From: Parcubacteria group bacterium
Lineage (GTDB): Bacteria > Patescibacteriota > Minisyncoccia > UBA6257 > JACRHW01
Length of the DNA: 64,000 nucleotides
NCBI GenBank assembly: GCA_016217555.1
Contig: JACRHW010000016.1
Coordinates: 8,845-72,844, forward strand
Reading direction: 5' to 3'
The notes under the pieces are model-generated. The model ran no database searches and was not told where the DNA came from. It saw only the letters and a program-made list of their open reading frames with translations. Every line of letters begins with the position of its first letter. Positions within the stretch are counted from its first letter, which is position 1. Made by a program: the position numbers and the translations under genes. This document shows, piece after piece, positions 201 through 60,880 of this stretch.

Positions 201-237
201 TCAGCTTTTAGGAATAGACGGTCCTAAATTTCCCTAG

Positions 238-263
238 GAGCTATAAGCTATAAGCTATAAACT
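238..263 (+). repeat. tandem heptamer array (CTATAAG)x3 ending ~6 nt before rpsG ATG; AGCT-core short-repeat family
   Basis: gagctataagctataagctataaac read directly; related AGCT-rich arrays precede other r-protein genes. Confidence 0.6.
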
Positions 264-268
264 AAACC

Positions 269-2982: not shown

Positions 2983-3158
2983 AGGAGTTGGCTTCTGAAC
3001 GTAGTGAAGAACTGCCAAACCTTTACCCCGCCCTCTAAGCACATCGAGCCTCGTTTTAACCTTGTATCCACATGCATAGAGGGCGGGGTGCTCAATGTTG
3101 TAGATAAATTTATCTCGCTCAACATTGGGTCTCGCTCATAAATTTAAACAACATTGGC
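2983..3158 (+). repeat. structured junction element copy A (~176 bp; RNase P RNA-like)
   Basis: Starts at fusA stop and ends ...caacattggc directly before the next ATG; hairpin ccccgccctctaagcaca...atgcatagagggcgggg plus second inverted repeat caatgttg/caacattg; near-identical copies at 38716 and 40385. Confidence 0.8.
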
Positions 3159-4951: not shown

Positions 4952-4957
4952 TCCATA

Positions 4958-4990
4958 CCCCACGCACAAGGATGTGTGGGTTTTAATTTC
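4958..4990 (+). terminator. rho-independent terminator-like hairpin
   Basis: cccacgcacaaggatgtgtggg followed by ttttaattt. Confidence 0.5.
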
Positions 4991-5030
4991 TGAAAACCTT
5001 CGGAGGGAAACCAAAAAACAAACACCTGCC

Positions 5031-5145
5031 ACTATGCCACAGCATAGTAGTAACATATTTTTATAGCGGGTCCTAAAAAATGTTTTTAGTCATACCCAGC
5101 ATGCCGTGGCATAGCTCCAACTATGGTAGTCGAACTACCATAGTT
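5031..5145. promoter_or_regulatory. cluster of three perfect palindromes sharing a CTATG/CATAG core
   Basis: actatgccacagcatagt; catgccgtggcatag; aactatggtagtcgaactaccatagtt (12-bp arms), all within ~115 bp upstream of ORF 5200. Confidence 0.4.
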
Positions 5146-5199
5146 AGTAAAAGCATCGTTGCCTTTTGAGACCTGTTGATTTAGTCTAATGGTAGTACT

Positions 5200-5568
5200 T
5201 TGAAGATAGGGGTGGGATGGGTAATGGAAAAAGAACCGCTTGTATTTATCATTGTTCCCAAAGGAAACACAAAAGCCAAAGATGCCCTAAAAAAACTAGG
5301 AGAGTATGCAACATCTCTTTCTATTTGTTTCACTGATACATATGTGTTTCGTAGAGTGAATATGTTTACGGTAGCCCTCAACAAAAAGGATGCTGAAATA
5401 TTGTTTCGTGCTAAATTTCAATGGGTTACCTTTACCGTGCCCAATCTCAACACAGGACCCCACGAAAAGAGTGATTGGAAGGTAATTAAACCACCACAAA
5501 TTCCGCAAGGGCTAGAAGATAGTATCCAATCTATTACCTTAGACCAACAAGTTTTTCTCACCGATTAG
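5200..5568 (+). CDS. hypothetical protein
   Basis: 122-aa ORF starting at TTG (alternative ATG at 5224); followed by a strong terminator; no known motifs. Confidence 0.45.
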   Translation: MKIGVGWVMEKEPLVFIIVPKGNTKAKDALKKLGEYATSLSICFTDTYVFRRVNMFTVALNKKDAEILFRAKFQWVTFTVPNLNTGPHEKSDWKVIKPPQIPQGLEDSIQSITLDQQVFLTD

Positions 5569-5571
5569 TTG

Positions 5572-5630
5572 TGAACCTCCCCGCCCTTACAGGCGGGGAG
5601 GTTCACAGGGGATTGAAATTTCTTTTGTGA
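5572..5630 (+). terminator. rho-independent terminator
   Basis: gtgaacctccccgcc cttaca ggcggggaggttcac (15-bp perfect stem) followed by tttcttttgtg. Confidence 0.75.
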
Positions 5631-5706
5631 GGAATTTTGATTAATTATCATATGCCACCCAAAAACTGGGTGGTTCTCATTTTTACCACCCCAAACGTAA
5701 CAGGGG

Positions 5707-5734
5707 TTGACATATGTTTAAAAATCACTAAACT
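5707..5734 (+). promoter_or_regulatory. sigma70-like promoter upstream of tuf
   Basis: TTGACA, 16-nt spacer, TAAACT; about 95 nt upstream of tuf ATG. Confidence 0.45.
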
Positions 5735-5829
5735 TAATCAGGTAGGTAGATAAACATTTAACTAACATAACAAGAGTAGACAGTGATGCTAAAGCATTAC
5801 TTTTTATTCGTAGAAACAAAAAAATTAGT

Positions 5830-10241: not shown

Positions 10242-10280
10242 TCCAGGCTAGTTGAAAAATTTTAAGTAATAGAGTATAAT

Positions 10281-10358
10281 CACAAGCGAGCAAAAATGAG
10301 AATTTACTTTCATTTTCTGCGAGCGCAGTGATTATATATCCATCAGGATATATAATCT
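10281..10358 (+). repeat. ~75-bp structured element E1 (inverted partner at 12510-12580)
   Basis: cacaagcgagca aaaatgagaatttactttcatttt ctgcgagcgcagtg + 12-bp palindrome gattatatatcc atca ggatatataatc; E2 is its reverse complement with a diverged central hairpin. Confidence 0.65.
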
Positions 10359-10402
10359 TTTATTCCTAATAAACTAACACCTAAAAAGCTAATAGCTATT
10401 CT

Positions 10403-12528: not shown

Positions 12529-12580
12529 CCACTGCGCTCGCATAATACGAAAATAAATTTTCGTTTACTGCTCGCTTGTG
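12510..12580 (-). repeat. ~70-bp structured element E2 (inverted copy of E1 at 10281-10358)
   Basis: tatacctacgggtata palindrome + cactgcgctcgca taatacgaaaataaattttcgtttac tgctcgcttgtg; arms are exact reverse complements of E1 arms. Confidence 0.65.
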
Positions 12581-12594
12581 GTTATAAATAACAT

Positions 12595-12888
12595 ATGGCA
12601 CATCGAACTTTTGAGGGTGTTGTGGTGAGTGATGCGATGCAAAAAACACGTGTGGTTGAGATTACTCGATTCAAAAAACACCCACGATATCATAAGCTAT
12701 TGAAGGTTTCAGAAAGACTAAAGGCTCATGATGAAAAAAATGAGTTTAGGAGTGGAGATAAGGTTATTATCGAAGAAACAAGACCTCTCTCTAGACAAAA
12801 GCGCTGGAATATCGTTAAATTAGTAGCCCGTAAAATTGAGGAGGTGGCTGATAGCATATCTCTTGCTGAGCAAGCGCCTAAAAGCTAA
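12595..12888 (+). CDS. rpsQ: 30S ribosomal protein S17
   Basis: 97 aa; ...[18 protein letters not shown]... Confidence 0.93.
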
Positions 12889-15650: not shown

Positions 15651-16118
15651 ATGGATTACAGAAATAAACAAGTTAAGGACGGCTATGATGCTATTACGGT
15701 TGACCTTTCGCGCGTAACTCGTGTCGTTGCAGGTGGAAAACGTATGAGTTTTCGAGCAACCGTGGCGGTTGGAAATAAGCTGGGAGAGGTTGGTCTTGGA
15801 GTAGGAAAGGGGCTTGATGTCGCGCAATCACTTGATAAGGCAAAGGCAAATGCGAAAAAACAACTTATGCGAGTTTCTATTAAAAATGGAACCATTCCTC
15901 ACGAAGTCCAGGGAAAATTTGGTGCAGCATATGTTATTATCAAACCAGCAGCAAAGGGAAGGGGAGTTATTGCGGGAAGTTCAGTACGCAGTATTTTAAC
16001 TCTTGCAGGATATTCCGATATTTCTGCAAAAATTTTATCAACTACAAAGAACAAACTCAATAATGCTCGCGCTGCACTTGTCGCTCTACAATCAATAGCA
16101 GGACACTCTAAAAAATAA
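15651..16118 (+). CDS. rpsE: 30S ribosomal protein S5
   Basis: 155 aa; ...RVTRVVAGGKRMSFRA.VAVGN..G.VG.G.GK... Confidence 0.95.
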   Translation: MDYRNKQVKDGYDAITVDLSRVTRVVAGGKRMSFRATVAVGNKLGEVGLGVGKGLDVAQSLDKAKANAKKQLMRVSIKNGTIPHEVQGKFGAAYVIIKPAAKGRGVIAGSSVRSILTLAGYSDISAKILSTTKNKLNNARAALVALQSIAGHSKK

Positions 16119-16120
16119 TT

Positions 16121-16555
16121 ATGCAATTACATGAAGTAAAATCAGAGCACCCAGGAAGGAAATCAAAGAGAGTGGGGCGTGGTGGAAAAAGAGGTACCAC
16201 GTCAGGTCATGGGCAAAAGGGACAAAAGTCCCGTGCGGGAAAAAGCATCAAACCTAATGTTAGGGAGATGTTATTACGTTTTCCTAAATTGCGTGGAATA
16301 AATTTCAAATCTACAAAGGCAAAAGTATATCCTATCTCACTTGATATGCTAGGAAAGGTAGTAGAGAATAAAGAAGTAGTTACCCTGCAGTGGCTTCTCA
16401 AAAAACGCCTTGCAAAGAAATCGGGTGGAAAAAGTCCTTCTGTTAAAATTCTTGATGGGAAAGTTGAATTTACAAAGGTAATTACAGTTAAGGGAGTTTC
16501 TGTCTCGGAATCTGCAAAAAAACGTATCTTAGACCAAGGAGGAACTATTGAATAA
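16121..16555 (+). CDS. rplO: 50S ribosomal protein L15 (directly after S5; no L30 gene)
   Basis: 144 aa; ...GRGGKRGTTSGHGQKGQKSRAG...; only 2 nt separate rpsE stop and rplO start. Confidence 0.93.
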   Translation: MQLHEVKSEHPGRKSKRVGRGGKRGTTSGHGQKGQKSRAGKSIKPNVREMLLRFPKLRGINFKSTKAKVYPISLDMLGKVVENKEVVTLQWLLKKRLAKKSGGKSPSVKILDGKVEFTKVITVKGVSVSESAKKRILDQGGTIE

Positions 16556-17975: not shown

Positions 17976-18005
17976 AAAAAGTTTGGTATACTAGAATTAT
18001 ATGAA

Positions 18006-18130
18006 CCCCGTTAGAAATTGCAACATTTACAAAATATATTCATTGCTATGTTTTATAAAAAGTCGTTTGTCATTAATACTACAGGAAACTCCAATTTCTA
18101 ACGGGGTTTACCTCTAACGGGATGAAATTT
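18006..18130 (+). repeat. ~100-bp element with 15-bp terminal inverted repeats, copy 1, running into the adk start codon
   Basis: ccccgttagaaattg ... caatttctaacgggg (perfect TIR) then tttacctctaacgggATGAAATT; near-identical copy at 20013-20139. Confidence 0.85.
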
Positions 18131-19943: not shown

Positions 19944-20012
19944 CTACCGGGATTAAAGTAAACGAGTATTAATTATATAATAAGTAGTTTGTGATTCTCG
20001 GATCGCGATCTA

Positions 20013-20139
20013 CCCCGTTAGAAATTGCAACATTTACAAAATATATTCATTGCTATGTTTTATAAAAAGTTGTTTGTCATTAATACTACAGGAAACTCCA
20101 ATTTCTAACGGGGTCTACTTCTAAACGGGATGAAATTCT
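20013..20139 (+). repeat. ~100-bp TIR element, copy 2, running into the pgk start codon
   Basis: ccccgttagaaattg...caatttctaacgggg then tctacttctaaacgggATGAAATT; ~97 percent identical to copy 1. Confidence 0.85.
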
Positions 20140-24621: not shown

Positions 24622-24658
24622 TTTTTCATTTTGAGATTTACATTTTAAATTTATTATC

Positions 24659-25771
24659 ATGTGCATAGGTTTTGATATACGAGTACTCTCAACGGGTAGG
24701 ATTACTGGGGTAGAGGAGTATACCCTAGAACTTGCAAAACATCTTTTGGCGGTTGATACAAAGAATGTATATTCTTTTTATTACAATGGATTATCGCCTC
24801 TCTTAAATCCTTATTTTAAAGACAAAAACGTAATATACGGAAAAACACCAAATAAACTCCTCGACCTTTCTTTCAAATTTCTCTCTCGCCCCTACATTGA
24901 CGAACGCATACAATGTAAGCTTTTTTTTAGTCCGCATTTCCTTCTCACCCCTCTCAAATCAGCACAAAGAATTCTCACCGTACACGATCTTTCATTCATA
25001 CGATTTCCCGAGTTTTTTTCTCTCAAACATCGTTTTTGGTTGAACGTTATGGAGATCAAAAAACAAATCAAAAAAGCAGAGCGCATCGTTGTCCCCTCCG
25101 ATTGCACAAAAAATGATCTTATTACCCTTCTCGATGTTCCCGAAAAAAAGATAGAACGGATTTACCATGGTATCAATCCTATTTTTGGACAACGTTATTC
25201 TGAAGAAGAATTGTCAGAATTTAAAATTACCCACGGACTTCCAAAGCAGTATGTTCTTTACCTTGGAACGATTGAACCAAGAAAAAATATTACAACCCTC
25301 ATTAAAGCCTTCGAATTGTTATGTGATGACTTGCCCAACGTCTCACTTGTGCTTGCGGGGAATTTGGGATGGCTGTTTGAACAATGTCTCCACACCATTG
25401 ATACGTCAAAATACAAAAACAGGATTATCCTCACTCGCGTATCCTCAGAAGATCGCCCAAAACTATATCAGGCGGCAGAGGTGTTTGTATATCCAAGTTT
25501 TTTTGAAGGATTTGGATTTCAACCCCTTGAAGCGCAGTATTCTCATATACCCGTTATTGCATCAAATCGCTCCTCGCTTCCAGAAACGCTAGGAGACTCG
25601 GCACTTCTCGTTGATCCCTACAATAGACTCGATCTTGCAGAGGCGATACGGACTGTTCTTACAGAAGAGAAGGTGAGGACTAATTTGATTAGAAAGGGAA
25701 GAGAAAATGCGGTACAATTCAATTGGGGTAGTGCGGCGAGACACTACGCGAAGCTCTTTAATTCGCTTTAG
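24659..25771 (+). CDS. glycosyltransferase family 4 (GT-B)
   Basis: 370 aa; ...EGFGFQPLEAQYSHIPVIASNRSSLPE... EX7E-type motif. Confidence 0.8.
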   Translation: MCIGFDIRVLSTGRITGVEEYTLELAKHLLAVDTKNVYSFYYNGLSPLLNPYFKDKNVIYGKTPNKLLDLSFKFLSRPYIDERIQCKLFFSPHFLLTPLKSAQRILTVHDLSFIRFPEFFSLKHRFWLNVMEIKKQIKKAERIVVPSDCTKNDLITLLDVPEKKIERIYHGINPIFGQRYSEEELSEFKITHGLPKQYVLYLGTIEPRKNITTLIKAFELLCDDLPNVSLVLAGNLGWLFEQCLHTIDTSKYKNRIILTRVSSEDRPKLYQAAEVFVYPSFFEGFGFQPLEAQYSHIPVIASNRSSLPETLGDSALLVDPYNRLDLAEAIRTVLTEEKVRTNLIRKGRENAVQFNWGSAARHYAKLFNSL

Positions 25772-37226: not shown

Positions 37227-37347
37227 GACCCACGCATTCGGCGCATTACTTCGTCAAACGCTGTGGTACTCAACGCAGTACTTCTTATGTACAGCTTATT
37301 CCGTTTCTCGCGTTTTCCTCATACTGCATCCGAATGCGTGGGTCCTA
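37224..37347 (+). other. large perfect hairpin (18-bp stem, ~88-nt loop) starting at the stop codon of gene 35847-37226
   Basis: taggacccacgcattcgg ... ccgaatgcgtgggtccta; loop contains inner hairpin gtactcaacgcagtac. Confidence 0.7.
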
Positions 37348-37453
37348 TTGACTAATTACCGGTATTTGATTACCATATCTAAGTGGTATTGAGAAGCTTG
37401 GCTAAGGCTTTTTCTTTTTACAAAGCCAGTGCCTCGTTTTTTCCTCCATTTCT

Positions 37454-37660
37454 ATGCAAAAAAAAACAGTTGAAGGTGTCGTAGAAGAGGCCCTGCCCGC
37501 AGGCACATTTCGTGTCCGTTTAGGTGCCGATTCAACTATCTTGGCCCACCTCTCAGGTAAAATGAGAATTTACTATATTAAAGTAATTCCTGGCGACTAC
37601 GTAACGGTAGAGTTAAGCCCCTACGACGAAACAAAAGGAAGAATCATAAAACGCAGATAA
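37454..37660 (+). CDS. infA: translation initiation factor IF-1
   Basis: 68 aa; ...[18 protein letters not shown]....AHLSGKMR...I.PGD.V.VELSPYD..KGRI..R. Confidence 0.93.
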
Positions 37661-37721
37661 GAGATAACTTACAGATTTTAGCTACTAGCTTCTAGGAAAC
37701 ATAATCTAGCTAATCCCTAAT

Positions 37722-37749
37722 TTCCTAAAAGCTAACAGCTAAAAGCTAA
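37722..37749 (+). repeat. CCTAAAAGCTAA-type AGCT-core array immediately upstream of rpmJ
   Basis: ttcctaaaagctaacagctaaaagctaac then ttt ATG. Confidence 0.6.
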
Positions 37750-37753
37750 CTTT

Positions 37754-37867
37754 ATGCATGTACGCGCATCAGTAAAAAAGGTTTGTCAGAAATGTAAACT
37801 TGTGCGAAGAAAGGGTCGTCTTCGTGTTACATGCGCTATTCCAAAACATAAACAACGACAAGGCTAA
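37754..37867 (+). CDS. rpmJ: 50S ribosomal protein L36 (below the ORF-track length cutoff)
   Basis: atgcatgtacgcgcatcagtaaaaaag... translates [37 protein letters not shown] (37 aa), classic L36 with C..C...C motif; coordinates +/-1. Confidence 0.85.
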
Positions 37868-37872
37868 CTTAT

Positions 37873-38259
37873 ATGGCACGTATTAGTGGAGTTAATCTCC
37901 CGGAACTAAAAAATATAGAAATTGCACTTACCTATGTATATGGTATTGGATCCCATCTTTCCAAAAAGATACTTTTAAAGGCGGGTGTTGAACCAAGAAA
38001 AAAAGTGAAAGACCTTGATGCTAGAGAAGTAAAAGCTCTTCAAGATGCCATAGAAAGTAAATATAAGACCGAGAATGATTTAAGGAGGGAGGTAAAAACA
38101 AATATTAAGCGTCTTAAGGATATCGGATCCTACCGAGGCGTGCGCCATTCGAAACATCTTCCTACCCGAGGACAAAGAACAAAAACAAACTCAAGAACAG
38201 TACGAGGAAACGTACGTAAGACAGTCGGAAGTGGTCGCAGAAAAGTTGATCTCAAATAA
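37873..38259 (+). CDS. rpsM: 30S ribosomal protein S13
   Basis: 128 aa; MARISGVNLP..K....AL..IYGIG... Confidence 0.95.
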   Translation: MARISGVNLPELKNIEIALTYVYGIGSHLSKKILLKAGVEPRKKVKDLDAREVKALQDAIESKYKTENDLRREVKTNIKRLKDIGSYRGVRHSKHLPTRGQRTKTNSRTVRGNVRKTVGSGRRKVDLK

Positions 38260-38262
38260 ACT

Positions 38263-38715
38263 ATGGGTAAAAAACGAGTCATAGAAGAAACAGGAGACCA
38301 AGCACTCAAAGCGAGTAGTGCTCTTCACGATAAAATTAAAGACAGTGCAGGAAAAAGCTCGAGTAAATTACTTGAACGTGGAAAGGCATATATTAATGCT
38401 ACCTATAACAATACTGTTATCGCCATCACCGATATGCAAGGAAATGTGATTGCGTGGAACTCTGCAGGAGCACTTGGCTTCAAGGGTCCCAAAAAGGCCA
38501 CACCTTTTGCAGCCGCAAAGGTAGTTGAATCAGTAAGTGAGAAAATTGCAAAAACTGGCCCTACAAAAATAGATGTTATTGTAAAAGGAGTGGGTGGTGG
38601 ACGAGATTCAGCAATTCGTGCCTTTGCAGGAAGAGGATTTGAGATAGATTCCATTGTTGATATGACTCCTATTCCTCACAACGGTCCACGTCCTCCAAAA
38701 GTAAGAAGAGTATAA
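38263..38715 (+). CDS. rpsK: 30S ribosomal protein S11
   Basis: 150 aa; ...NNTVIAITDMQGNVIAWNSAG..GFKG.KK.TPFAA... Confidence 0.95.
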   Translation: MGKKRVIEETGDQALKASSALHDKIKDSAGKSSSKLLERGKAYINATYNNTVIAITDMQGNVIAWNSAGALGFKGPKKATPFAAAKVVESVSEKIAKTGPTKIDVIVKGVGGGRDSAIRAFAGRGFEIDSIVDMTPIPHNGPRPPKVRRV

Positions 38716-38898
38716 AGGATTTGGCTTCCGAACACAGTGAGGAATTGCCAAACCTTTACCCCGCCTTCTAGGCACAATAACATAAGGTAAATTAAAGAAA
38801 TATGATACTACAAGAATATATGTTACAACAGTATGCAATGTGCTTAGAAGGCGGGGTGCTCAGTTTTATTAACTCACTTCGTTTCGTATAAAATTGGC
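38716..38898 (+). repeat. structured junction element copy B (RNase P RNA-like)
   Basis: aggatttggcttccgaacacagtgaggaattgccaaacctttaccccgccttctaggcac...gcttagaaggcggggtgctcag...aaattggc then rpsD ATG. Confidence 0.8.
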
Positions 38899-39522
38899 AT
38901 GATTGGTCCTAAATGTAAAAAATGTAGAGCGGCGGGTGAGAAACTCTTTATGAAAGGGGAGCGTTGTCTTTCTCCAAAATGTGGAGCCGTACGACGTCCT
39001 TATCGACCCGGTGTACATGGGCCAAGCAAGAAGCGAAGAAATGTAACCGAATTCGGCAAACAACTTCTCGAAAAACAAAAATTAAAATGGACGTACGGAT
39101 TGCGCGAACAGCAATTTAAAAAATATTTCAAAGAAGCTCTCGCAGCTAAAGGCGTTACTATCAATCGCCTCGTGCAAACACTCGAGAGAAGACTTGACAA
39201 CGTAGTTTTTAGACTTGGTTTCGTCCCTTCACGAGGTATGGGACGTGCGCTTGTACGTCATGGTCATTTCCTTGTTAATGGAAGAAAGGTTACCATTCCT
39301 TCACTTGCAGTGAAACCCGGAGATATTATCTCTATCCGAGAAGGTTCAAAAGATCGGGGAGATCTCAAAGATGCGTCTATGAAAATTGCACACTACGAGT
39401 CACCTGCATGGCTTTCTATGAACAAAGAAACCCTTGAAGCAAAAATAACAGCGCTTCCAGAATTACAAGACGTAACTATTCCTTTTAATATCAATCTAAT
39501 AGTCGAATTTTATTCTCGTTAA
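38899..39522 (+). CDS. rpsD: 30S ribosomal protein S4
   Basis: 207 aa; N-terminal zinc-ribbon CKKCRAAGEKLFMKGERCLSPKC; S4 domain. Confidence 0.95.
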   Translation: MIGPKCKKCRAAGEKLFMKGERCLSPKCGAVRRPYRPGVHGPSKKRRNVTEFGKQLLEKQKLKWTYGLREQQFKKYFKEALAAKGVTINRLVQTLERRLDNVVFRLGFVPSRGMGRALVRHGHFLVNGRKVTIPSLAVKPGDIISIREGSKDRGDLKDASMKIAHYESPAWLSMNKETLEAKITALPELQDVTIPFNINLIVEFYSR

Positions 39523-39572
39523 ATAAGATTAGCTCATAGCTGTTGGCTTACAGGGAGATGCAAACCATTGAT

Positions 39573-39616
39573 TCCTAAAAGCTAAAAGCTAAAAGCTAAA
39601 AGCTAAAAGCTAAACT
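39573..39616 (+). repeat. (AAAGCT)n tandem hexamer array immediately upstream of rpoA
   Basis: attcctaaaagctaaaagctaaaagctaaaagctaaact then ATG. Confidence 0.7.
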
Positions 39617-40384
39617 ATGAACATTCCTCTTCCTCAAGAACCATTATTTGAAGACAAAAAAAATAACATCGGCGTTTTTAAAATAGAAGGCCTTCACTCT
39701 GGCTATGGTATTACCCTTGGAAATGCCTTGCGACGAGTTCTCCTCTCTTCTTTGGAAGGTGCAGCGGTAATATCCTTCAAAATAGAAGGAGTAGACCATG
39801 AATTTACAACCATTCCAGGTGTTCTCGAAGATGTTATCCAGATCGTACTTAATCTTAAGAAACTGCGAATTAAACTCCTTAGCGATGGTCCAGAAACCAT
39901 CCACATACGTGTAAAGGGAGAGAAGGAGGTAACAGGACGTGATATAGAGAAAAATGCAAACGTGGAGATAATCAACAAAGACCTTGTGCTCATGACCGTT
40001 ACCGACAAGAAAACTTCTCTTACCATGGAAATCACGGTAGCGCATGGGCTTGGATATCAAACCTCGGACAAGGTACAGACAGAAAAACTTTCTATTGGTA
40101 CTATCGCCGTTGATGCCATCTTCACACCAGTCCGAAGTGTCCAAGACTCGGTTGAAAAAATGCGTGTTGGAGAACGCACCGATTATGATCGTCTTGTTCT
40201 TAAGGTTGAAACAGATGGCAGTATTTCCCCCGAGGAAGCATTTACTGAAGCAGTAGCAATTCTTATTGATCAATTCAAAGCTCTCACCATAGGAACAAAG
40301 ACAGAAGAAAACCAAACAGAAGCGGAAGACGTAATAGAAGAGGGTGAAGAAAAAACTAAAAAAACAAAAAAGGCAAAAAAGTAA
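39617..40384 (+). CDS. rpoA: DNA-directed RNA polymerase alpha subunit, N-terminal domain only (no alpha-CTD)
   Basis: 255 aa; alpha-NTD motifs (...LGNALRRVLLSSLEGAAV...; ...ITVAHGLGY...) then acidic/Lys tail TEAEDVIEEGEEKTKKTKKAKK; stop directly abuts junction-element copy C. Confidence 0.85.
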   Translation: MNIPLPQEPLFEDKKNNIGVFKIEGLHSGYGITLGNALRRVLLSSLEGAAVISFKIEGVDHEFTTIPGVLEDVIQIVLNLKKLRIKLLSDGPETIHIRVKGEKEVTGRDIEKNANVEIINKDLVLMTVTDKKTSLTMEITVAHGLGYQTSDKVQTEKLSIGTIAVDAIFTPVRSVQDSVEKMRVGERTDYDRLVLKVETDGSISPEEAFTEAVAILIDQFKALTIGTKTEENQTEAEDVIEEGEEKTKKTKKAKK

Positions 40385-40560
40385 AGGATTTGGCTTCCGA
40401 ACACAGTGAGGAATTGCCAAACCTTTACCCCGCCCTCTAGGCATATGGATACAAGATTAAAACAAGGCTCGATGTGCGTAGAGGGCGGGGTGCTCAATGT
40501 TGTAGATACATTTATCTCACTCAACATTGGGTTTCGTTCATAAATGTAAACAACATTGGC
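40385..40560 (+). repeat. structured junction element copy C (RNase P RNA-like)
   Basis: ~95 percent identical to copy B over the first 60 nt; hairpin ccccgccctctaggcata...gcgtagagggcgggg; ends caacattggc then rplQ ATG. Confidence 0.8.
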
Positions 40561-40908
40561 ATGAAACACGTCAACAAGGTACGAAAATTTAGCAGAAAAA
40601 CATCAGAACGCAGGGCGTTTATTAAGGGCTTGAACCACAACCTTGTAATGCACGGAAAAATGGAGACAACTCTTACGCGCGCTAAGGCACTCAAAAGTAC
40701 AGTGGAAAAACTTATCACTGTTGCAAAAAAACAAAATGTTGCCTCATTACGTCTCCTCATGCGTCGCCTCCCAAAGATTTCTTCCAAAAAACTTTTCCAT
40801 GAAATTGCTCCAAAATATAAAGAACGTAATGGGGGATATACTCGCGTAATAAGAGGAAAAAGTCGCACAGCAGATGGTACCACCATGGCTATTATTGAAT
40901 TCGTCTAA
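40561..40908 (+). CDS. rplQ: 50S ribosomal protein L17
   Basis: ATG at 40561 (track ORF from 40474 runs through the repeat); MKHVNKVRKFSRKTSERRAF... L17 N-terminus. Confidence 0.9.
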   Translation: MKHVNKVRKFSRKTSERRAFIKGLNHNLVMHGKMETTLTRAKALKSTVEKLITVAKKQNVASLRLLMRRLPKISSKKLFHEIAPKYKERNGGYTRVIRGKSRTADGTTMAIIEFV

Positions 40909-40912
40909 ACAT

Positions 40913-41272
40913 ATGACTACTGCCACAAAATCACATATTATTGAGATGGATGTACAAGAAAAAATGCTTGGCCGCGTTGCCTCAGAAATTGCATCCCTCC
41001 TGCAGGACAAAAATAGTCCCTTCTTCGAACCACGCTTGGCAGGAAAGAATATTGTGAAAGTCTCAAATGCCGAAAAGATTAAATTGAGTGGAAAAAAGAT
41101 GGAGCAAAAAATATATTATAAACACACGGGCTATTTAGGCCATCTTAAACAACTCAGCGCCGAGAAAGTGTTTGAAAAAGATCCTACACGCCTTTTAAGA
41201 ACGGCGGTGTATAGAATGCTTCCTAAAAACAAACTGCGCGCGAAAAGAATTAAACGACTTATTTTCATATAA
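40913..41272 (+). CDS. rplM: 50S ribosomal protein L13
   Basis: ATG at 40913; ...LGRVASEIASLL......P....G..I.V.NA.KI...G.K...K.YY.HTGY.G... matches L13. Confidence 0.88.
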   Translation: MTTATKSHIIEMDVQEKMLGRVASEIASLLQDKNSPFFEPRLAGKNIVKVSNAEKIKLSGKKMEQKIYYKHTGYLGHLKQLSAEKVFEKDPTRLLRTAVYRMLPKNKLRAKRIKRLIFI

Positions 41273-41327
41273 GCTTATAGCTGTTAGCTACTAGCTTATA
41301 GGAGACAAGGGGTACTAATCCCGAATA

Positions 41328-41366
41328 TCCTAAAAGCTAAAAGCTAAAAGCTAAAAGCTAACGTAT
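41328..41366 (+). repeat. CCTAAAAGCTAA tandem array immediately upstream of rpsI
   Basis: tatcctaaaagctaaaagctaaaagctaacgtat then ATG; the track start 41367 implies one more heptamer unit than I could read, so unit count is approximate. Confidence 0.65.
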
Positions 41367-41825
41367 ATGCCTACCACTGCTACTAAAATCAAAAAAACGG
41401 TGACCAAAAAAGTATCATCAACAAAAACAGAGGATACTGAAAAATACTTCTACGGTCTTGGACGAAGAAAGACAGCTATTGCTCAAGTACGCCTTTATCC
41501 CAAAAGAAAGGACATCATTATCAATGGCAAAGAATTTCATGCTTATTTCCCAACAAAGCGTACCCAGCTTACTGTTGAAGCTCCTTTCAAAAAAATGAAA
41601 ATTGCCGAATATTTCGGAGGCGATGTAAGGGTACTTGGCGGAGGAGTAAGTGCACAAGCAGAAGCCATACGCCTTGGTATTAGCAAAGCACTTCTCGCCT
41701 TCAATGGGGAGTTCAAGCGAAGACTTAAGCGTGCAGGGTATCTTACACGAGATCCTCGCATGGTAGAACGCAAAAAATACGGCCTCAAAAAAGCACGTCG
41801 TGCACCCCAGTGGGGAAAGCGTTAA
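41367..41825 (+). CDS. rpsI: 30S ribosomal protein S9
   Basis: 152 aa; ends ...KKARRAPQWGKR (S9 C-terminal signature). Confidence 0.93.
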   Translation: MPTTATKIKKTVTKKVSSTKTEDTEKYFYGLGRRKTAIAQVRLYPKRKDIIINGKEFHAYFPTKRTQLTVEAPFKKMKIAEYFGGDVRVLGGGVSAQAEAIRLGISKALLAFNGEFKRRLKRAGYLTRDPRMVERKKYGLKKARRAPQWGKR

Positions 41826-41852
41826 ACTAGCTTTTAGCTGTTAGGTTTTAGG

Positions 41853-41884
41853 AAAAAGACGCCTTTGATGGGCGTCTTTTTGTG
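41853..41884. terminator. bidirectional rho-independent terminator after rpsI
   Basis: aaaaagacgcc tttgat ggcgtctttttgtg. Confidence 0.75.
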
Positions 41885-41897
41885 TTATTATCATAGT

Positions 41898-43190
41898 ATG
41901 AAATTCATTGTACGGGGAGGTAAAAAACTTGAGGGGGAAATTGTGCTTGGTGGAGCCAAAAACGCTGCCACAAAAATGCTTGTCGCCTCCCTTCTTACAA
42001 GCGAACCAATGGTACTTCATAATACCCCCAACATAGGGGATGTTGCGATCACCCAAGAGCTCTGTGAGCTCGTAGGAAGCTCTATAACAAGAGATAATAA
42101 CACCGTTACTGTTCACACCCCAGAAATCAAAAACACCCGCGTACTCTCTTTGAGTCGCAAAAATAGAATCCCTGTTCTGGCCCTCGGACCCCTCCTCGCA
42201 AGAACAGGAGAGGCCGAGATACCACTTCTTGGGGGAGACAAAATTGGCCCAAGACCAATCGATATGCATCTTACTGCCCTCGAAGAAATGGGTGCCATTA
42301 TAGAAAAAAGAGACTCCTCGTACTATGCACATGCTCCCCATGGTCTAAAAGGCGTAAAAATACAATTACGTTATCCAAGCGTAGGCGCAACAGAAAACAT
42401 AATCCTCGCTGCAACTTTAGCAAAAGGGAGAACGGTCATCGAAAACGCCGCGACTGAACCAGAAATCATTGATCTCGTGAAAATGTTGCAAAACATGGGG
42501 GCAATCATCGAGTTGGGTGCTAACAGAACTATTTATATCGACGGAGTAAGATCCCTCCGTGGAGGGGAGCATACTATTTTACCTGATCGTAACGAAGCGG
42601 CCTCTTTTGCGTCTCTTGCTGTTGCGACACGTGGTGATGTTTTTGTACGCAATGCTAAACAAGACCACCTCATTACGTTTTTAAATGCCCTCCGAAAGGT
42701 GGGGGGAGAATATAAGGTAGAAAATACAGGAATCCGTTTTTGGAGGGGAAAAAATTTAACGAGCATCGAACTTGAAACAGACACCCACCCCGGCTTCATG
42801 ACCGATTGGCAACAACCCTTTACCCTCCTCCTCACGCAAGCAAAAGGAAGCTCTATTCTCCATGAAACAGTATATGAAGACAGGTTTGGACATGTAGGAG
42901 AATTAAATATCATGGGAGCTGATATACACGTATTCTCAAAATGCCTCGGAGAGATCGCTTGTCGATTTAATGGCAAAAATCATCAGCACAGCATTCTTGT
43001 AAATGGCCCCACCCCCCTCAAGGGAATATCGCTCACTATAAAAGACCTACGCGCAGGGATGGCACACCTCATCGCTACCCTCATCGCAGAAGGAGAATCA
43101 ACCGTCGACAATATCGAGGAGCTCGACCGAGGCTACGAAAACATTGACACTCGCCTCCAAAACCTAGGAGCAGACATCATCCGAGCGTGA
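41898..43190 (+). CDS. murA: UDP-N-acetylglucosamine 1-carboxyvinyltransferase
   Basis: ATG at 41898; MKFIVRGGKKLEGEI.L.GAKNA; EPSP-synthase fold. Confidence 0.9.
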   Translation: MKFIVRGGKKLEGEIVLGGAKNAATKMLVASLLTSEPMVLHNTPNIGDVAITQELCELVGSSITRDNNTVTVHTPEIKNTRVLSLSRKNRIPVLALGPLLARTGEAEIPLLGGDKIGPRPIDMHLTALEEMGAIIEKRDSSYYAHAPHGLKGVKIQLRYPSVGATENIILAATLAKGRTVIENAATEPEIIDLVKMLQNMGAIIELGANRTIYIDGVRSLRGGEHTILPDRNEAASFASLAVATRGDVFVRNAKQDHLITFLNALRKVGGEYKVENTGIRFWRGKNLTSIELETDTHPGFMTDWQQPFTLLLTQAKGSSILHETVYEDRFGHVGELNIMGADIHVFSKCLGEIACRFNGKNHQHSILVNGPTPLKGISLTIKDLRAGMAHLIATLIAEGESTVDNIEELDRGYENIDTRLQNLGADIIRA

Positions 43191-43258: not shown

Positions 43259-43381
43259 ACCCCACTTATTCCTTTTGCATCTTGTATTTTTTACCGTTCA
43301 TACTAGATACCAGGTACTAAATACAAAATACTCGTTCCTTGTGTATTCCTTCCAAACACTAATTCCTGTATACTATTAGAT

Positions 43382-49706: not shown

Positions 49707-49794
49707 AGGAGTGTATTTTGTATCTAGTAGTTAGTATCTTGTATATGTCCACCATAGGCGGACTGCGTGCCAGATACAACGTTTAACATAAAAT

Positions 49795-50274: not shown

Positions 50275-50330
50275 GACGATTAGCTTATTAGGTCTACGGA
50301 TTAACTTATATCACAAAAACTCATTAAGTA

Positions 50331-54697: not shown

Positions 54698-54966
54698 ACC
54701 ACATTTATCACGGTGATTTTTTTGCGAGATCCATCGAATGAGATTTTTTGACGTGAAGAGAATTTGACGCTTCCTGTAGTAATGGCGTAAAGTGTATCAT
54801 CACCTCCACGTCGAACATTCTTACCGGGATGCCATTTTGTTCCCCGCTGACGTATCAAAATAGTTCCTGCTTTTACAGGTTGTCCATCAAACTTTTTAAC
54901 TCCTAGACGTTTTGAGCGTGAATCTCTGCCCAACTTGGTAGAGCCGCCCGCTTTGGTATGTGCCAT
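54694..54966 (-). CDS. rpmA: 50S ribosomal protein L27
   Basis: 90 aa; [42 protein letters not shown]; no rplU upstream. Confidence 0.92.
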
Positions 54967-54977
54967 AGTATAAGTAC

Positions 54978-55010
54978 GTTAGCTAATTAGTATTTAGCTT
55001 TTTAGGAAAA
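54978..55010 (-). repeat. CCTAAAAAGCTAA-type motif upstream of rpmA (minus strand)
   Basis: reverse complement reads cctaaaaagctaaatactaattagctaacgtacttatac then ATG. Confidence 0.5.
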
Positions 55011-55066
55011 CGAGTCGATGCTAGCCTAAGAAGCTAACATCTAACTCTCTAGAAAGCTAATCAATT

Positions 55067-55240: not shown

Positions 55241-55765
55241 AAAAGGCCGAGAATGCCTCGGCCAATGCAATAAAAGCCTACTAGTTTTTGTTCTCCTTGG
55301 CTACAAAATCATTCTCAACTCCGGTGAAAATCTTATCAGAAATCTTTTGAAATTGCGCGGAGATGGTGTGATAGATTCTGCGAAAAAGTTTCTTAATAGG
55401 ATCATTGATGATTGTCCAAATGAGACTCCATGGCCAATAGGTCATCCACATGAGAATCTTCTTCTTGTAGTTGTAAGCAAGGGGAGTTACAACAAATCTT
55501 TCATCCCGATGATATGTATGTGATCTAAATCACAATCAAGTTCATTAATGAAATCGTGTATATGGTCTGGATCAGGAAGCATGAGAAAATATCCTCCAAT
55601 ATAATAATGTACTGAATAGTATATACCATGTATTATTTGTCCTTTCCAGCTTTTATAAACTAGATAGGGGAGCGACTATACCATGGAAAGTTTTCCCCAG
55701 AATATACGTCGCACAATATATGTTTTCGGACGTATCAGGGACTTGTGGTGAGCATAGCCGAACCA

Positions 55766-55791
55766 ATTTAAAAAGCCCCGTATTGGGGCTG
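55766..55791 (-). terminator. rho-independent terminator after minus-strand ORF 55797-56150
   Basis: minus-strand reading agccccaatacggggct followed by ttttaaatt. Confidence 0.55.
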
Positions 55792-55796
55792 CTCAA

Positions 55797-56150
55797 CTAA
55801 TCACTCTTGCCTTGATCACAGTCACATCTCCCGCAAGTTTCGCGCGCTCGGTCTTGTTCTTTTATTGCACGATCTAGATTAGGATATGAATACGCGAAGA
55901 CTTCATCGAAAAAGAGCGCGTTTACTACCCAAAGTAAAACTATAATAACCAGAGTAACCGGAACCATGACCCAATAGAATAGTTCGTGCCAAAAAACATA
56001 AGGAATCGCAGGAATGGTATAGATAAGGCAAAGATCAACACAAAAAACACCAACACATAAGAATCCAAGTTGAACAATATGCTTAAGGCCACTACTCAAC
56101 CTTGCCACATCCTTTCTGGTTGCCAATGAACCAAAGTAATAATAGCACAT
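55797..56150 (-). CDS. hypothetical membrane protein
   Basis: ATG at 56150 (track ORF extends to 56219); 3 hydrophobic segments; C-terminal CGRCDCDQ. Confidence 0.4.
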   Translation of the reverse strand: MCYYYFGSLATRKDVARLSSGLKHIVQLGFLCVGVFCVDLCLIYTIPAIPYVFWHELFYWVMVPVTLVIIVLLWVVNALFFDEVFAYSYPNLDRAIKEQDRARETCGRCDCDQGKSD

Positions 56151-56250
56151 GTAGTATGTGCCGTCAAATTTTGGATTCCCCTGCCTACCGGTAGGCAGGC
56201 GCCTTCCCTCCCCCGCCAAGGCTACGGAAGGGCACAGCGCGGGAAGATAG

Positions 56251-56580
56251 TTAAACTAGATTTTTTAGGTATTCAAGAAAACCAATAATGAGTTTGAAAA
56301 GAGAAATTGATATTTGAATAACGACTTTGGCGATGGGTTTTACAAGCGTATCAATTATCTTCTTACCTACATCCCCTAGTGATTTTGTAATTTCAGAGGA
56401 AGATTTACTAAGCTCTCCTCTATCTACCTGACGCACATTGTCTTTTATTTCTTGTACGGCACCCGTAACCTCCTTTGGAACAGAAGAATTTGTGGTCGCA
56501 AAAGAAACAAAAGAAAACTGGAAAACAAGCAAGCAAAGAATACTTGAAATAAGATACACCCTAAAAGAAACTTTTCTCAT
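56251..56580 (-). CDS. hypothetical secreted protein
   Basis: ATG at 56580 gives signal-peptide-like MRKVSFRVYLISSILCLLVFQFSFVSFA. Confidence 0.45.
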   Translation of the reverse strand: MRKVSFRVYLISSILCLLVFQFSFVSFATTNSSVPKEVTGAVQEIKDNVRQVDRGELSKSSSEITKSLGDVGKKIIDTLVKPIAKVVIQISISLFKLIIGFLEYLKNLV

Positions 56581-56650
56581 ATTCTTATTATACCACAAAT
56601 CAAACCCATTAGGCGCTGATACTAAATAGAGAGATCCTTCGTCTGACGTC

Positions 56651-56725
56651 TCAGGATGACAGACTGGTGCTGGATTCCCGCCTTGGTTCGACTAGGCTCA
56701 CCATAAATCGCGGGAATAACAGTGA
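56651..56725. repeat. composite GTCATCCTGAG / GGAATCC-family palindromes (reverse orientation)
   Basis: ctcaggatgac ... ctggattcccgcc ttggttcgactaggctcaccataaatc gcgggaataac. Confidence 0.5.
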
Positions 56726-56756
56726 GAAGAATGGACACCATCCAAATCAAAAACGA

Positions 56757-56845
56757 ATCCTCAAGGGGGAGTCAGGTGTTATCGCTACGATAGGGGGAAT
56801 ATAACGGTCACCCCCTTGGAGATGAGTGTTTGGTTTGGGTGGGGG
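56757..56845 (-). repeat. palindromic intergenic element, copy 2 (inverted copy of 3384-3494)
   Basis: reverse complement ...ctccaagggggtgaccgttatattccccctatcgtagcgataacacctgactcccccttgagg... is ~80 percent identical to the core at 3408-3471. Confidence 0.6.
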
Positions 56846-56849
56846 GCAA

Positions 56850-60719: not shown

Positions 60720-60880
60720 AAGATAAGTTATTTCTTGTACTTACTATATCGCAAAAAAACCAACAAATCAAAGAAAAAGTATCTGGTATCTTGTAGCTAG
60801 TATTTTGTATACCCAATAACGCAATGTTCGCTGTAAGCGAACATATACTAGATACACGATACTAAATACAACATACTATT

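Follow-up and report, generated by a model that had tools for sequence, protein, structure and literature searches.

Predicted hairpins with tandem-heptad arms in stop-to-start spacers of ribosomal-protein operons of a Parcubacteria group bacterium

Introduction

How translation starts at the internal genes of long operons is an open question for bacteria that lack Shine-Dalgarno (SD) sites, such as many lineages of the candidate phyla radiation (CPR) and the Bacteroidetes. The question is raised by a 64,000-nucleotide stretch of contig JACRHW010000016.1 from a Parcubacteria group bacterium (assembly GCA_016217555.1, positions 8,845 to 72,844; hereafter, the window), in which the rpmJ, rpoA and rpsI genes each follow a short tandem array of heptads that ends a few nucleotides before the start codon. 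An earlier reading of the letters (the original prediction) took such arrays for stand-ins for SD sites. Here, we find that the arrays form the 3′ arms of imperfect palindromes, and that these elements come and go between close relatives; the arrays are therefore probably not a replacement ribosome-binding site. We hold with moderate confidence that they belong to a dispersed, fast-evolving palindromic repeat element with a slippage-prone start-proximal arm, which is tolerated inside operons through its handedness. The element would then be a passenger that may modulate expression, and not a ribosome-binding signal.

Results

Heptad arrays close to ribosomal-protein start codons

The str, S10, spc and alpha ribosomal-protein clusters are all located in the window, at approximately 40% G+C, and 38 of the 73 genes that we called (our own crude call) lie in ribosomal-protein or translation clusters. 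Tandem Repeats Finder places period-7 arrays of CTAAAAG before rpmJ (37725-37749, 3.6 copies), rpoA (39575-39614, 5.7 copies) and rpsI (41330-41361, 4.6 copies), with a 100% match to the unit for the latter two, and an array of AGCTATA before rpsG (239-264). The string AAAGCTAA occurs 17 times in the window, against 4.55 ± 2.0 times in shuffled sequences, and none of 100 shuffles reaches 17. The three CTAAAAG arrays end 3-5 nt from the ATG; variant arrays or hairpins lie ahead of rpsG and, on the minus strand, rpmA. Five arrays or hairpins were located in all, together with single units at rpsS, rplN and def. Arrays or single units are present at about 9 of the 73 genes, short of the large share of genes that an SD-type signal would occupy.

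The predicted arrays are thus real and non-random, although a placement before “many” ribosomal-protein start codons was generous. The motif is found at all five start sites named in the original prediction, at rpsG and rpmA as variants that lie outside the interval 37,722-41,366 to which it had been assigned. Its unit is not the hexamer (AAAGCT)n; the actual unit is 7 nt long (AAAAGCT or CTAAAAG), and the earlier unit counts were one short, with rpoA carrying five full units instead of four, and rpsI four instead of three.

Each array is one arm of a predicted hairpin that fills the spacer

AGCT-rich blocks had been described upstream of the arrays as palindromes in their own right. The blocks are present, but they are not merely palindromic: they mirror the arrays as an imperfect reverse complement, with (TTAGCTN)n on the 5′ side and (NAGCTAA)n on the 3′ side. 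Alignment of the two arms gives 19-33 matched positions per element. As RNA, the spacers ahead of rpmJ, rpoA and rpsI are each predicted to fold as one hairpin of 23-32 pairs (−22 to −41.5 kcal/mol). With 0-12 nt between the preceding stop codon and the stem, and 3-20 nt between the stem and the following ATG, the predicted stems fill the spacer. The arrays and hairpins are as follows.

37673..37749, plus strand: infA>rpmJ element; 5′ arm 37673-37699 (TTTTAGCTACTAGCTTCTAGG), loop 37700-37720, 3′ arm 37721-37747; array CTAAAAG x3.6 at 37724-37749; rpmJ ATG at 37754
39529..39614, plus strand: rpsD>rpoA element; 5′ arm 39529-39560 (TTAGCTCATAGCTGTTGGCTTACAGG), 3′ arm 39566-39599; array CTAAAAG x5.7 at 39574-39614, its final two units outside the main stem; rpoA ATG at 39617
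41272..41361, plus strand: rplM>rpsI element; 5′ arm AGCTTATAGCTGTTAGCTACTAGCTTATAGG; array CTAAAAG x4.6 at 41329-41361; rpsI ATG at 41367
203..264, plus strand: rpsL>rpsG variant; short hairpin 203-242 (AGCTTTTAGG / CCTAGGAGCT); array (AGCTATA) x3.7 at 239-264, mostly outside the hairpin and unpaired; rpsG ATG at 269
54978..55060, minus strand: variant in the rpmA 5′ untranslated region (UTR); hairpin 55060 to 54994; 3′ arm CCTAAAAAGCTAAATACTAATTAGCTAAC (55006 to 54978); rpmA ATG at 54966

The predicted stabilities differ among the copies. The infA>rpmJ element folds at −21.8 kcal/mol (23 pairs; z −3.0 relative to shuffles), rpsD>rpoA at −28.5 kcal/mol (27 pairs; z −3.9), and rplM>rpsI at −40.1 kcal/mol (z −5.9), or −41.5 kcal/mol with 32 pairs when three extra bases are included; this last hairpin spans 41272-41359, and its first base is the last base of the rplM stop codon. 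Two folds of the rpmA hairpin gave −30.3 kcal/mol (z −3.8) and −26.2 kcal/mol, and the rpsL>rpsG variant folds weakly (−14 kcal/mol, z −0.8).

Consensus scans for promoters and terminators show no break at the arrays, for which reason the elements are most likely transcribed within one operon. A promoter-like site lies upstream of infA, and the sole strong terminator-like site on the plus strand of the 37300-42000 interval follows rpsI, as the likely end of an infA-rpsI transcription unit:

41853..41881, plus strand: intrinsic-terminator-like hairpin with a 12-pair stem and a T-run (terminator scan and fold)

Ahead of rpmA, a promoter-like TTGACT-17-CATAAT with an upstream TG matches at 10 of 12 positions (55092-55064), and the whole rpmA hairpin would therefore lie in the 5′ UTR. 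The arrays themselves do not resemble known signals. No sigma-70-like match (−35/−10 with 16-18-nt spacing) overlaps any array, which sets aside a promoter; an intrinsic terminator or attenuator was rejected because no U-run follows the stems and no terminator-like site coincides with an array; and no known RNA family or ribosomal-protein leader matched at Rfam gathering thresholds across the whole window. In a permissive Rfam scan, the hairpins gave sub-threshold microRNA-precursor matches only.

Shine-Dalgarno sites and CTAA upstream of start codons

The original prediction that canonical SD sites are almost missing from the window holds: in the regions from −20 to −1, GGAG occurs at 2 and GAGG at 0 of the 73 genes, against 4.6 and 5.0 expected. 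A subgroup of the Parcubacteria lacks the anti-SD motif in 16S rRNA (Tsurumaki et al., PMC9297842), and the host is a Parcubacteria-type CPR bacterium. Loss of the anti-SD probably accounts for the absence of SD sites without any replacement motif. No 16S rRNA gene lies within the window.

CTAA is the most enriched 4-mer in the same upstream regions (21 of 73 genes against 3.2 expected). By our own sorting, 15 of these 21 have another source for it: 5 genes owe it to the stop codon of the upstream gene, 9 to heptad elements and 2 to a 113-nt repeat described below; 6 genes remain, against about 2.5 expected. A general CTAA initiation motif was rejected, since the enrichment at the 73 window genes is largely gone once these sources are set aside.

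The elements come and go between close relatives

Copies of the element at different junctions have more in common than their arrays. Those ahead of rpmJ, rpsI and rpoA align across both arms and the loop, with a common loop CTAATCCC(T/G)AAT in the rpmJ and rpsI copies, and these two are 85-93% identical over the 5′ arm and loop, not in the array alone. Because copies at different junctions have loop sequence in common, they constitute a dispersed repeat family.

A scan of species-representative genomes with RpoA provided four relatives, with RpoA identities to the window of 89% (L001), 90% (L002, labeled Parcubacteria group), 78% (L003) and 74% (L004, Patescibacteria). The lengths of the corresponding spacers are as follows.

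infA>rpmJ spacer: window 93 nt, L001 3 nt, L002 74 nt, L003 86 nt, L004 28 nt
rpsD>rpoA spacer: window 94 nt, L001 4 nt, L002 64 nt, L003 21 nt, L004 20 nt
rplM>rpsI spacer: window 94 nt, L001 2 nt, L002 90 nt, L003 7 nt, L004 9 nt

The elements are thus polymorphic in presence and absence at orthologous junctions between the window and L001-L004; at all three, the 2-4-nt spacers of L001 hold no element. In L002, hairpins are present at six junctions, and a seventh has a short array that lacks one; the architecture is that seen in the window, and the units are different, (CTAAGCA)n, CCTAAAAAACTAACA and CCTAATAAGCTAACGT, representing two families of such elements. Different unit families hence fill equivalent spacer slots in relatives. 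What stays invariant across the window and the relatives is TTAG...TTAGG-loop-CCTAA...CTAA; TTAG/CTAA, instead of the previously proposed AGCT, is the constant core. Orthologous elements occupy rpoA>rplQ in L001 and L002, and in L002 the 3′ arm has been re-homogenized to two identical 16-nt units.

An inverted-repeat element of approximately 125 nt (ends CCCnGTAGTGAAAATTCGAC ... GTCGAATTTCTACTACnGGG) was also observed in the rpsM>rpsK and rplQ>rplM spacers of L001 (876-1006 and 3312-3437). It is absent from the window and L002 and is flanked by the direct duplications TATG and TCTAA, from which it follows that insertions into such junctions do occur.

Further afield, heptad arrays occur around rpoA in only 3 of 67 species loci, those of L002, L039 and L040. 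Given this patchy, non-universal occurrence, we rejected heptad arrays as a general property of the alpha operon.

These comparisons leave an SD-substitute role for the arrays unsupported. Like SD sites, which reside 5 to 30 nt upstream of the start codon, the arrays occupy that region; unlike SD sites, they are missing at most genes, are not conserved at orthologues and are predicted to be largely base-paired in the mRNA. The proposal of a lineage-specific initiation signal is unsupported on the same evidence, the array being absent from the same three genes in L001, built of other units in L002 and present at a minority of window genes.

Copy number varies at the arrays

The original prediction that the tracts are length-variable is upheld by three observations: the 3.6, 4.6 and 5.7 units at the window sites, the re-homogenized arm of L002, and the metagenome contigs L081 (4229-4285) and L083 (3571-3641), which have 7 and 9 CTAAAAG units between identical flanks. 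The difference between these two contigs is direct evidence of copy-number polymorphism in another organism. A strain-level difference did not emerge for the present organism, the sole other record of which is a 1467-nt Logan contig from SRR12113407; it is 100% identical to window positions 37276-38742, and no further RpoA, RpsI or RpsD record was found. This contig ends inside a repeat of approximately 180 nt (see below), as expected if repeats break short-read assemblies, and the run is a source of reads for the strain in the window.

Heptad hairpins, mostly of one handedness, recur in unrelated organisms

We sampled 80 metagenome loci, spanning 26-69% G+C, from at least 80 exact CTAAAAGCTAAAAGCTAA matches in contigs. 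Heptad hairpins of the TTAGC/GCTAA type also occur in contigs of unrelated organisms. Ten of the 80 loci lie inside ribosomal-protein clusters, with arrays at rplO>secY, rpsG>fusA, rpsQ>rplN (three loci), rplM>rpsI, rpsS>rplV and secY>adk, and before rpsQ and rpsL. Elsewhere, arrays precede an Hsp20-family gene, nusA and the L25 gene (assigned by Pfam), as well as genes that resemble proS, pdxA, trxB and adk by their N-termini.

The orientation of the arms is strongly skewed. Among the sampled loci, the (TTAGCNN)n arm complementary to the A-rich array lies 5′ of it in 17 and 3′ of it in 1, with all shuffled controls below the score cut-off, and 42 of 52 intercistronic hairpins have a G/T-rich 5′ arm. 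Because a palindrome reads alike on both strands, this handedness belongs to the element itself. It would be explained most simply if the opposite handedness placed a U-rich strand 3′ of the stem, leading to termination inside the operon.

One metagenome contig, L137 (13.9 kb, 58% G+C), has heptad-arm hairpins at most S10/spc junctions, ending 5-30 nt before the ATG, and purine-rich GGAG-like sequences between the hairpin end and the ATG. Its unit families are AGCTnnT/AGCTAAn, GGGAATA/TATTCCC and GTGATTA/TAATCAC. It encodes L30, unlike the window and unlike CPR bacteria generally. In the window, no L30 gene lies between rpsE and rplO (15651-16555), which fits CPR (Patescibacteria).

Solitary arms and other structured repeats in the window

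Four further sites carry single arms or units of the family, which we read as decay products.

41826..41852, plus strand: solitary 5′-arm copy (ACTAGCTTTTAGCTGTTAGGTTTTAGG) directly after the rpsI stop codon, without a 3′ arm
10365..10398, plus strand: solitary 3′-arm-like tract before rpsS (CCTAATAAACTAACACCTAAAAAGCTAATAGCTA), without a complementary arm
12877..12888, plus strand: single unit CCTAAAAGCTAA, which supplies the final codons of rpsQ together with its stop codon and lies 2 nt from the rplN ATG (12891)
50275..50292, minus strand: single unit CCTAATAAGCTAATCGTC directly upstream of the def ATG (50274)

By our own comparison, the reverse complement of the arm after rpsI matches the rpsI array at 23 of 26 positions. 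The tract before rpsS resembles the 14-15-nt unit family of L002, and the unit beside def, a gene whose identity was confirmed by Pfam, matches the 16-nt unit of the L001 and L002 rpoA>rplQ elements.

Structured spacers are common in the window: 36 are at least 40 nt long, and more than half of these have stems of at least 17 pairs, from several repeat families. A structured repeat of approximately 180 nt occurs in three copies, at 2983-3158 (fusA>orf73), 38716-38898 (rpsK>rpsD) and 40385-40560 (rpoA>rplQ). It fills the stop-to-ATG spacer, with AGGAkTTGGCTTC right after the stop codon and TTGGC right before the ATG, and its consensus fold has three stem-loops with six compensatory pairs among the three copies and no Rfam match. 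Directly before adk and pgk, at 18005-18117 and 20012-20124, lie two 97%-identical copies of a 113-nt repeat, which may provide both genes with a common promoter or leader module. A second heptad family, GTATCTA/TAGATAC, is found at 43300-43332, 49712-49744 and 60778-60878; its copy in the ftsW>murG spacer forms a hairpin of 28 pairs, and those close to fmt and o169 are partial. Hairpins with heptad arms thus extend beyond the AGCT family and beyond ribosomal-protein genes. Further intercistronic hairpins lie at 745-842 (rpsG>fusA), approximately 10270-10330 (before rpsS) and approximately 12530-12590 (before rpsQ), one with arms of 8-9-nt period and two with common TATAAyCAC...GCGAGC motifs. 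Three stretches of 0.9-1.6 kb (4952-5829, 24622-25706 and 55241-56849) hold no convincing open reading frame (ORF) by our crude call and have strong predicted structure; no tRNA or Rfam match was found in them.

Discussion

A model for the heptad element can be outlined from these observations. Elements would be copied from one of the very short stop-to-start operon spacers to another, and the near-perfect array arm, whose copy number changes in 7-nt steps, would expand and contract by replication slippage. In the mRNA of the infA-rpsI operon, the arms would pair into an imperfect hairpin that takes up the whole spacer. Only the design with the G/U-rich arm first and the A/C-rich arm second would survive within operons, as the reverse would act as an intrinsic terminator, and additional unpaired A-rich units beside the ATG would keep the start region open for SD-independent initiation. 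The mismatches between the arms comprise 11 G-U and 20 A-C, together with many A-A and G-A, and most of them put A in the 3′ arm; this suggests that homogenization of the array to an A-rich unit may outpace compensation in the other arm and proceed regardless of pairing. Selection on the sense-strand RNA through a wobble bias was considered and rejected, as the excess of A-C over G-U gives no signal for it.

Several observations weigh against a tolerated passenger. A Pfam scan of 30 window ORFs revealed no transposase, and no unambiguous target-site duplication was detected, since TAA at both ends is a given for an array of CTAA units. Every window copy neighbors a ribosomal-protein or RNA-polymerase gene, and this association, with the 10 of 80 metagenome loci, exceeds what random insertion predicts. 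By our own reading, the regular array is the start-proximal arm in all seven elements of the window and L002 that have a clear array, and in many low-GC loci the last CTAA ends 2-6 nt from the ATG. Opening the region from −18 to +12 around the start codon is predicted to cost 9-14 kcal/mol in 8 of 11 junctions, and selection would be expected to remove such a cost from essential, highly expressed genes unless the structure were used or processed. At that cost, free initiation should be impeded by hairpins that are neither unfolded nor cut.

The main rival, in our assessment an unlikely one, would have cleavage of the heptad stem by ribonuclease III (RNase III), or by another activity specific for double strands, separate the cistrons and leave a short, unstructured A/C-rich leader, with copy number tuning output. 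The predicted stems, with their periodic mismatches, resemble the hmw substrate of RNase III (PMC12721329), and the opening cost makes an unfolding or cleavage step seem needed; processing would also explain both that cost and the association with ribosomal-protein operons. However, no rnc gene was found among the window ORFs scanned with Pfam (64 kb of genome), L001 dispenses with the elements at all three junctions, and the arm mismatches carry no G-U bias on the sense strand.

An SD-independent enhancer or standby site, at which A/C-rich CUAA heptads recruit the 30S subunit or protein S1 upstream of the AUG, is improbable. The setting would suit it, as the window does not use SD sites and a Parcubacteria subgroup has lost the anti-SD (PMC9297842), the regular array is the start-proximal arm and ends 3-5 nt from the ATG, and TAACTGA heptamers in an equivalent position in Beggiatoaceae have been proposed to act in translation (PMC4679880). 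Where the array outruns the stem, moreover, the start region is predicted to open cheaply (rpoA, 5.1 kcal/mol; rpsG, 2.9 kcal/mol). Yet in most copies the array is predicted to be base-paired and not free, the same genes have no arrays in L001 and other units in L002, most window genes do without, and the hairpins of L137 sit upstream of GGAG-like sequences.

The placement of the hairpins invites a third account, in which the foot of the hairpin joins stop codon and AUG and a terminating ribosome unzips the stem and re-initiates: the median distance is 4.5 nt from stop codon to stem and 13.5 nt from stem to ATG across the 52 hairpins. When a ribosome was modeled on the upstream stop codon, the opening cost at rplM>rpsI fell from 13.7 to 5.1 kcal/mol. 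Such relief appeared in only 3 of 11 junctions, which we tentatively attribute to the arms re-pairing in a shifted register, and the rpmA copy has no upstream cistron. The simple model of coupling by unzipping is therefore weak and was rejected, and we consider a coupling bridge very unlikely.

Least probable of all is that the arrays serve as an operator bound by an autoregulatory ribosomal protein or some other sequence-specific protein, or as a switch for phase variation; the original prediction had raised a binding array for an autoregulatory factor and a phase- or dosage-variable tract. Repeated identical units of variable number could bind a protein cooperatively, but similar arrays precede unrelated genes in other organisms (hsp20, nusA, and pdxA-, trxB-, adk- and proS-like genes), the unit sequence is not conserved among close relatives, no known leader family (Rfam) matches, essential ribosomal-protein genes are unlikely contingency loci, and added units leave the distance from the last unit to the ATG unchanged.

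The passenger reading has precedents in part. REP/BIME and Correia/ERIC-type elements are dispersed imperfect palindromes in intergenic or intercistronic positions that form co-transcribed hairpins and are polymorphic among strains. The window elements are likewise dispersed, palindromic, intercistronic and polymorphic in presence; they differ in having arms of tandem heptads that would expand by slippage, and no cognate transposase or clear target-site duplication was found for them. A further comparison is with the STRR heptamer sequences of cyanobacteria. The cyanobacterial sequences are also contiguous heptamers, within 30-100 nt of the start codons of many genes, with other units and in another phylum, and they have not been described as pairing with an inverted array in a hairpin. 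For those near the start codons of Nostoc recF and recO, a role in translation is suspected and not established (bioRxiv 10.1101/2022.06.06.494920).

The nearest precedent in mechanism is the 5′ UTR of hmw1A and hmw2A in Haemophilus influenzae, where a heptamer repeat lies in a long imperfect hairpin that RNase III cuts, raising expression, and where changes in repeat number depend on transcription, folding and cleavage alike (PMC12721329). In the window, too, a long imperfect hairpin precedes a start codon in a putatively transcribed UTR and, on the predicted fold, has the heptamer repeat as one of its arms; copy number varies, and access to the start site would be affected. The hmw repeat, however, is the left arm and pairs with a G-rich tract, whereas here it is the right, start-proximal arm and its partner is a degenerate complementary heptad. 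Moreover, hmw concerns one virulence locus, at which RNase III cleavage and phase variation have been proven, whereas the present elements are dispersed in housekeeping operons and known from sequence only.

By description, the nearest precedent is the TAACTGA heptamers of marine Beggiatoaceae, some Cyanobacteria and Bacteroidetes, which closely precede start codons that lack SD sites and have no known function (MacGregor 2015, PMC4679880). The window arrays match this pattern, with at least two tandem, forward-oriented heptamers that contain stop codons a few nucleotides from an SD-less start codon; in both cases some arrays lie at internal junctions of ribosomal-protein operons, translation genes are over-represented and the phylogenetic distribution is patchy. 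Three or more units place a TAA (3′ arm) or TAG (5′ arm) in every reading frame, a point that MacGregor made for TAACTGA (PMC4679880). The unit sequence differs, and TAACTGA repeats were reported without predicted secondary structure and with one inverted copy, whereas in the window an inverted arm and a long predicted hairpin are the rule. We found no description of TTAGC/GCTAA heptad hairpins in the literature on such repeats, ribosomal-protein operons, STRR sequences or the Parcubacteria.

A broader proposal, speculative and decidedly doubtful, is that TTAGC/GCTAA “heptad-zipper” hairpins might be a widespread intercistronic punctuation in bacteria that are only distantly related, preferentially of ribosomal-protein operons, cleaved or remodeled to leave each cistron a short A/C-rich leader, with repeat number setting output. 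If true, this would constitute a general way to translate internal cistrons without, or alongside, SD pairing.

For bacteria without SD sites, the present case removes one tempting answer to how internal genes are translated, namely, a new SD-like motif. It documents hairpins with tandem-heptad arms in the stop-to-start spacers of ribosomal-protein genes, with strong handedness, rapid turnover and recurrence in unrelated organisms. If the elements are passengers that the operon tolerates, they indicate the amount of structured insertion that can be absorbed by an essential operon and the designs that it permits; if they are processed, variation in repeat number would be linked to the dosage of ribosomal proteins.

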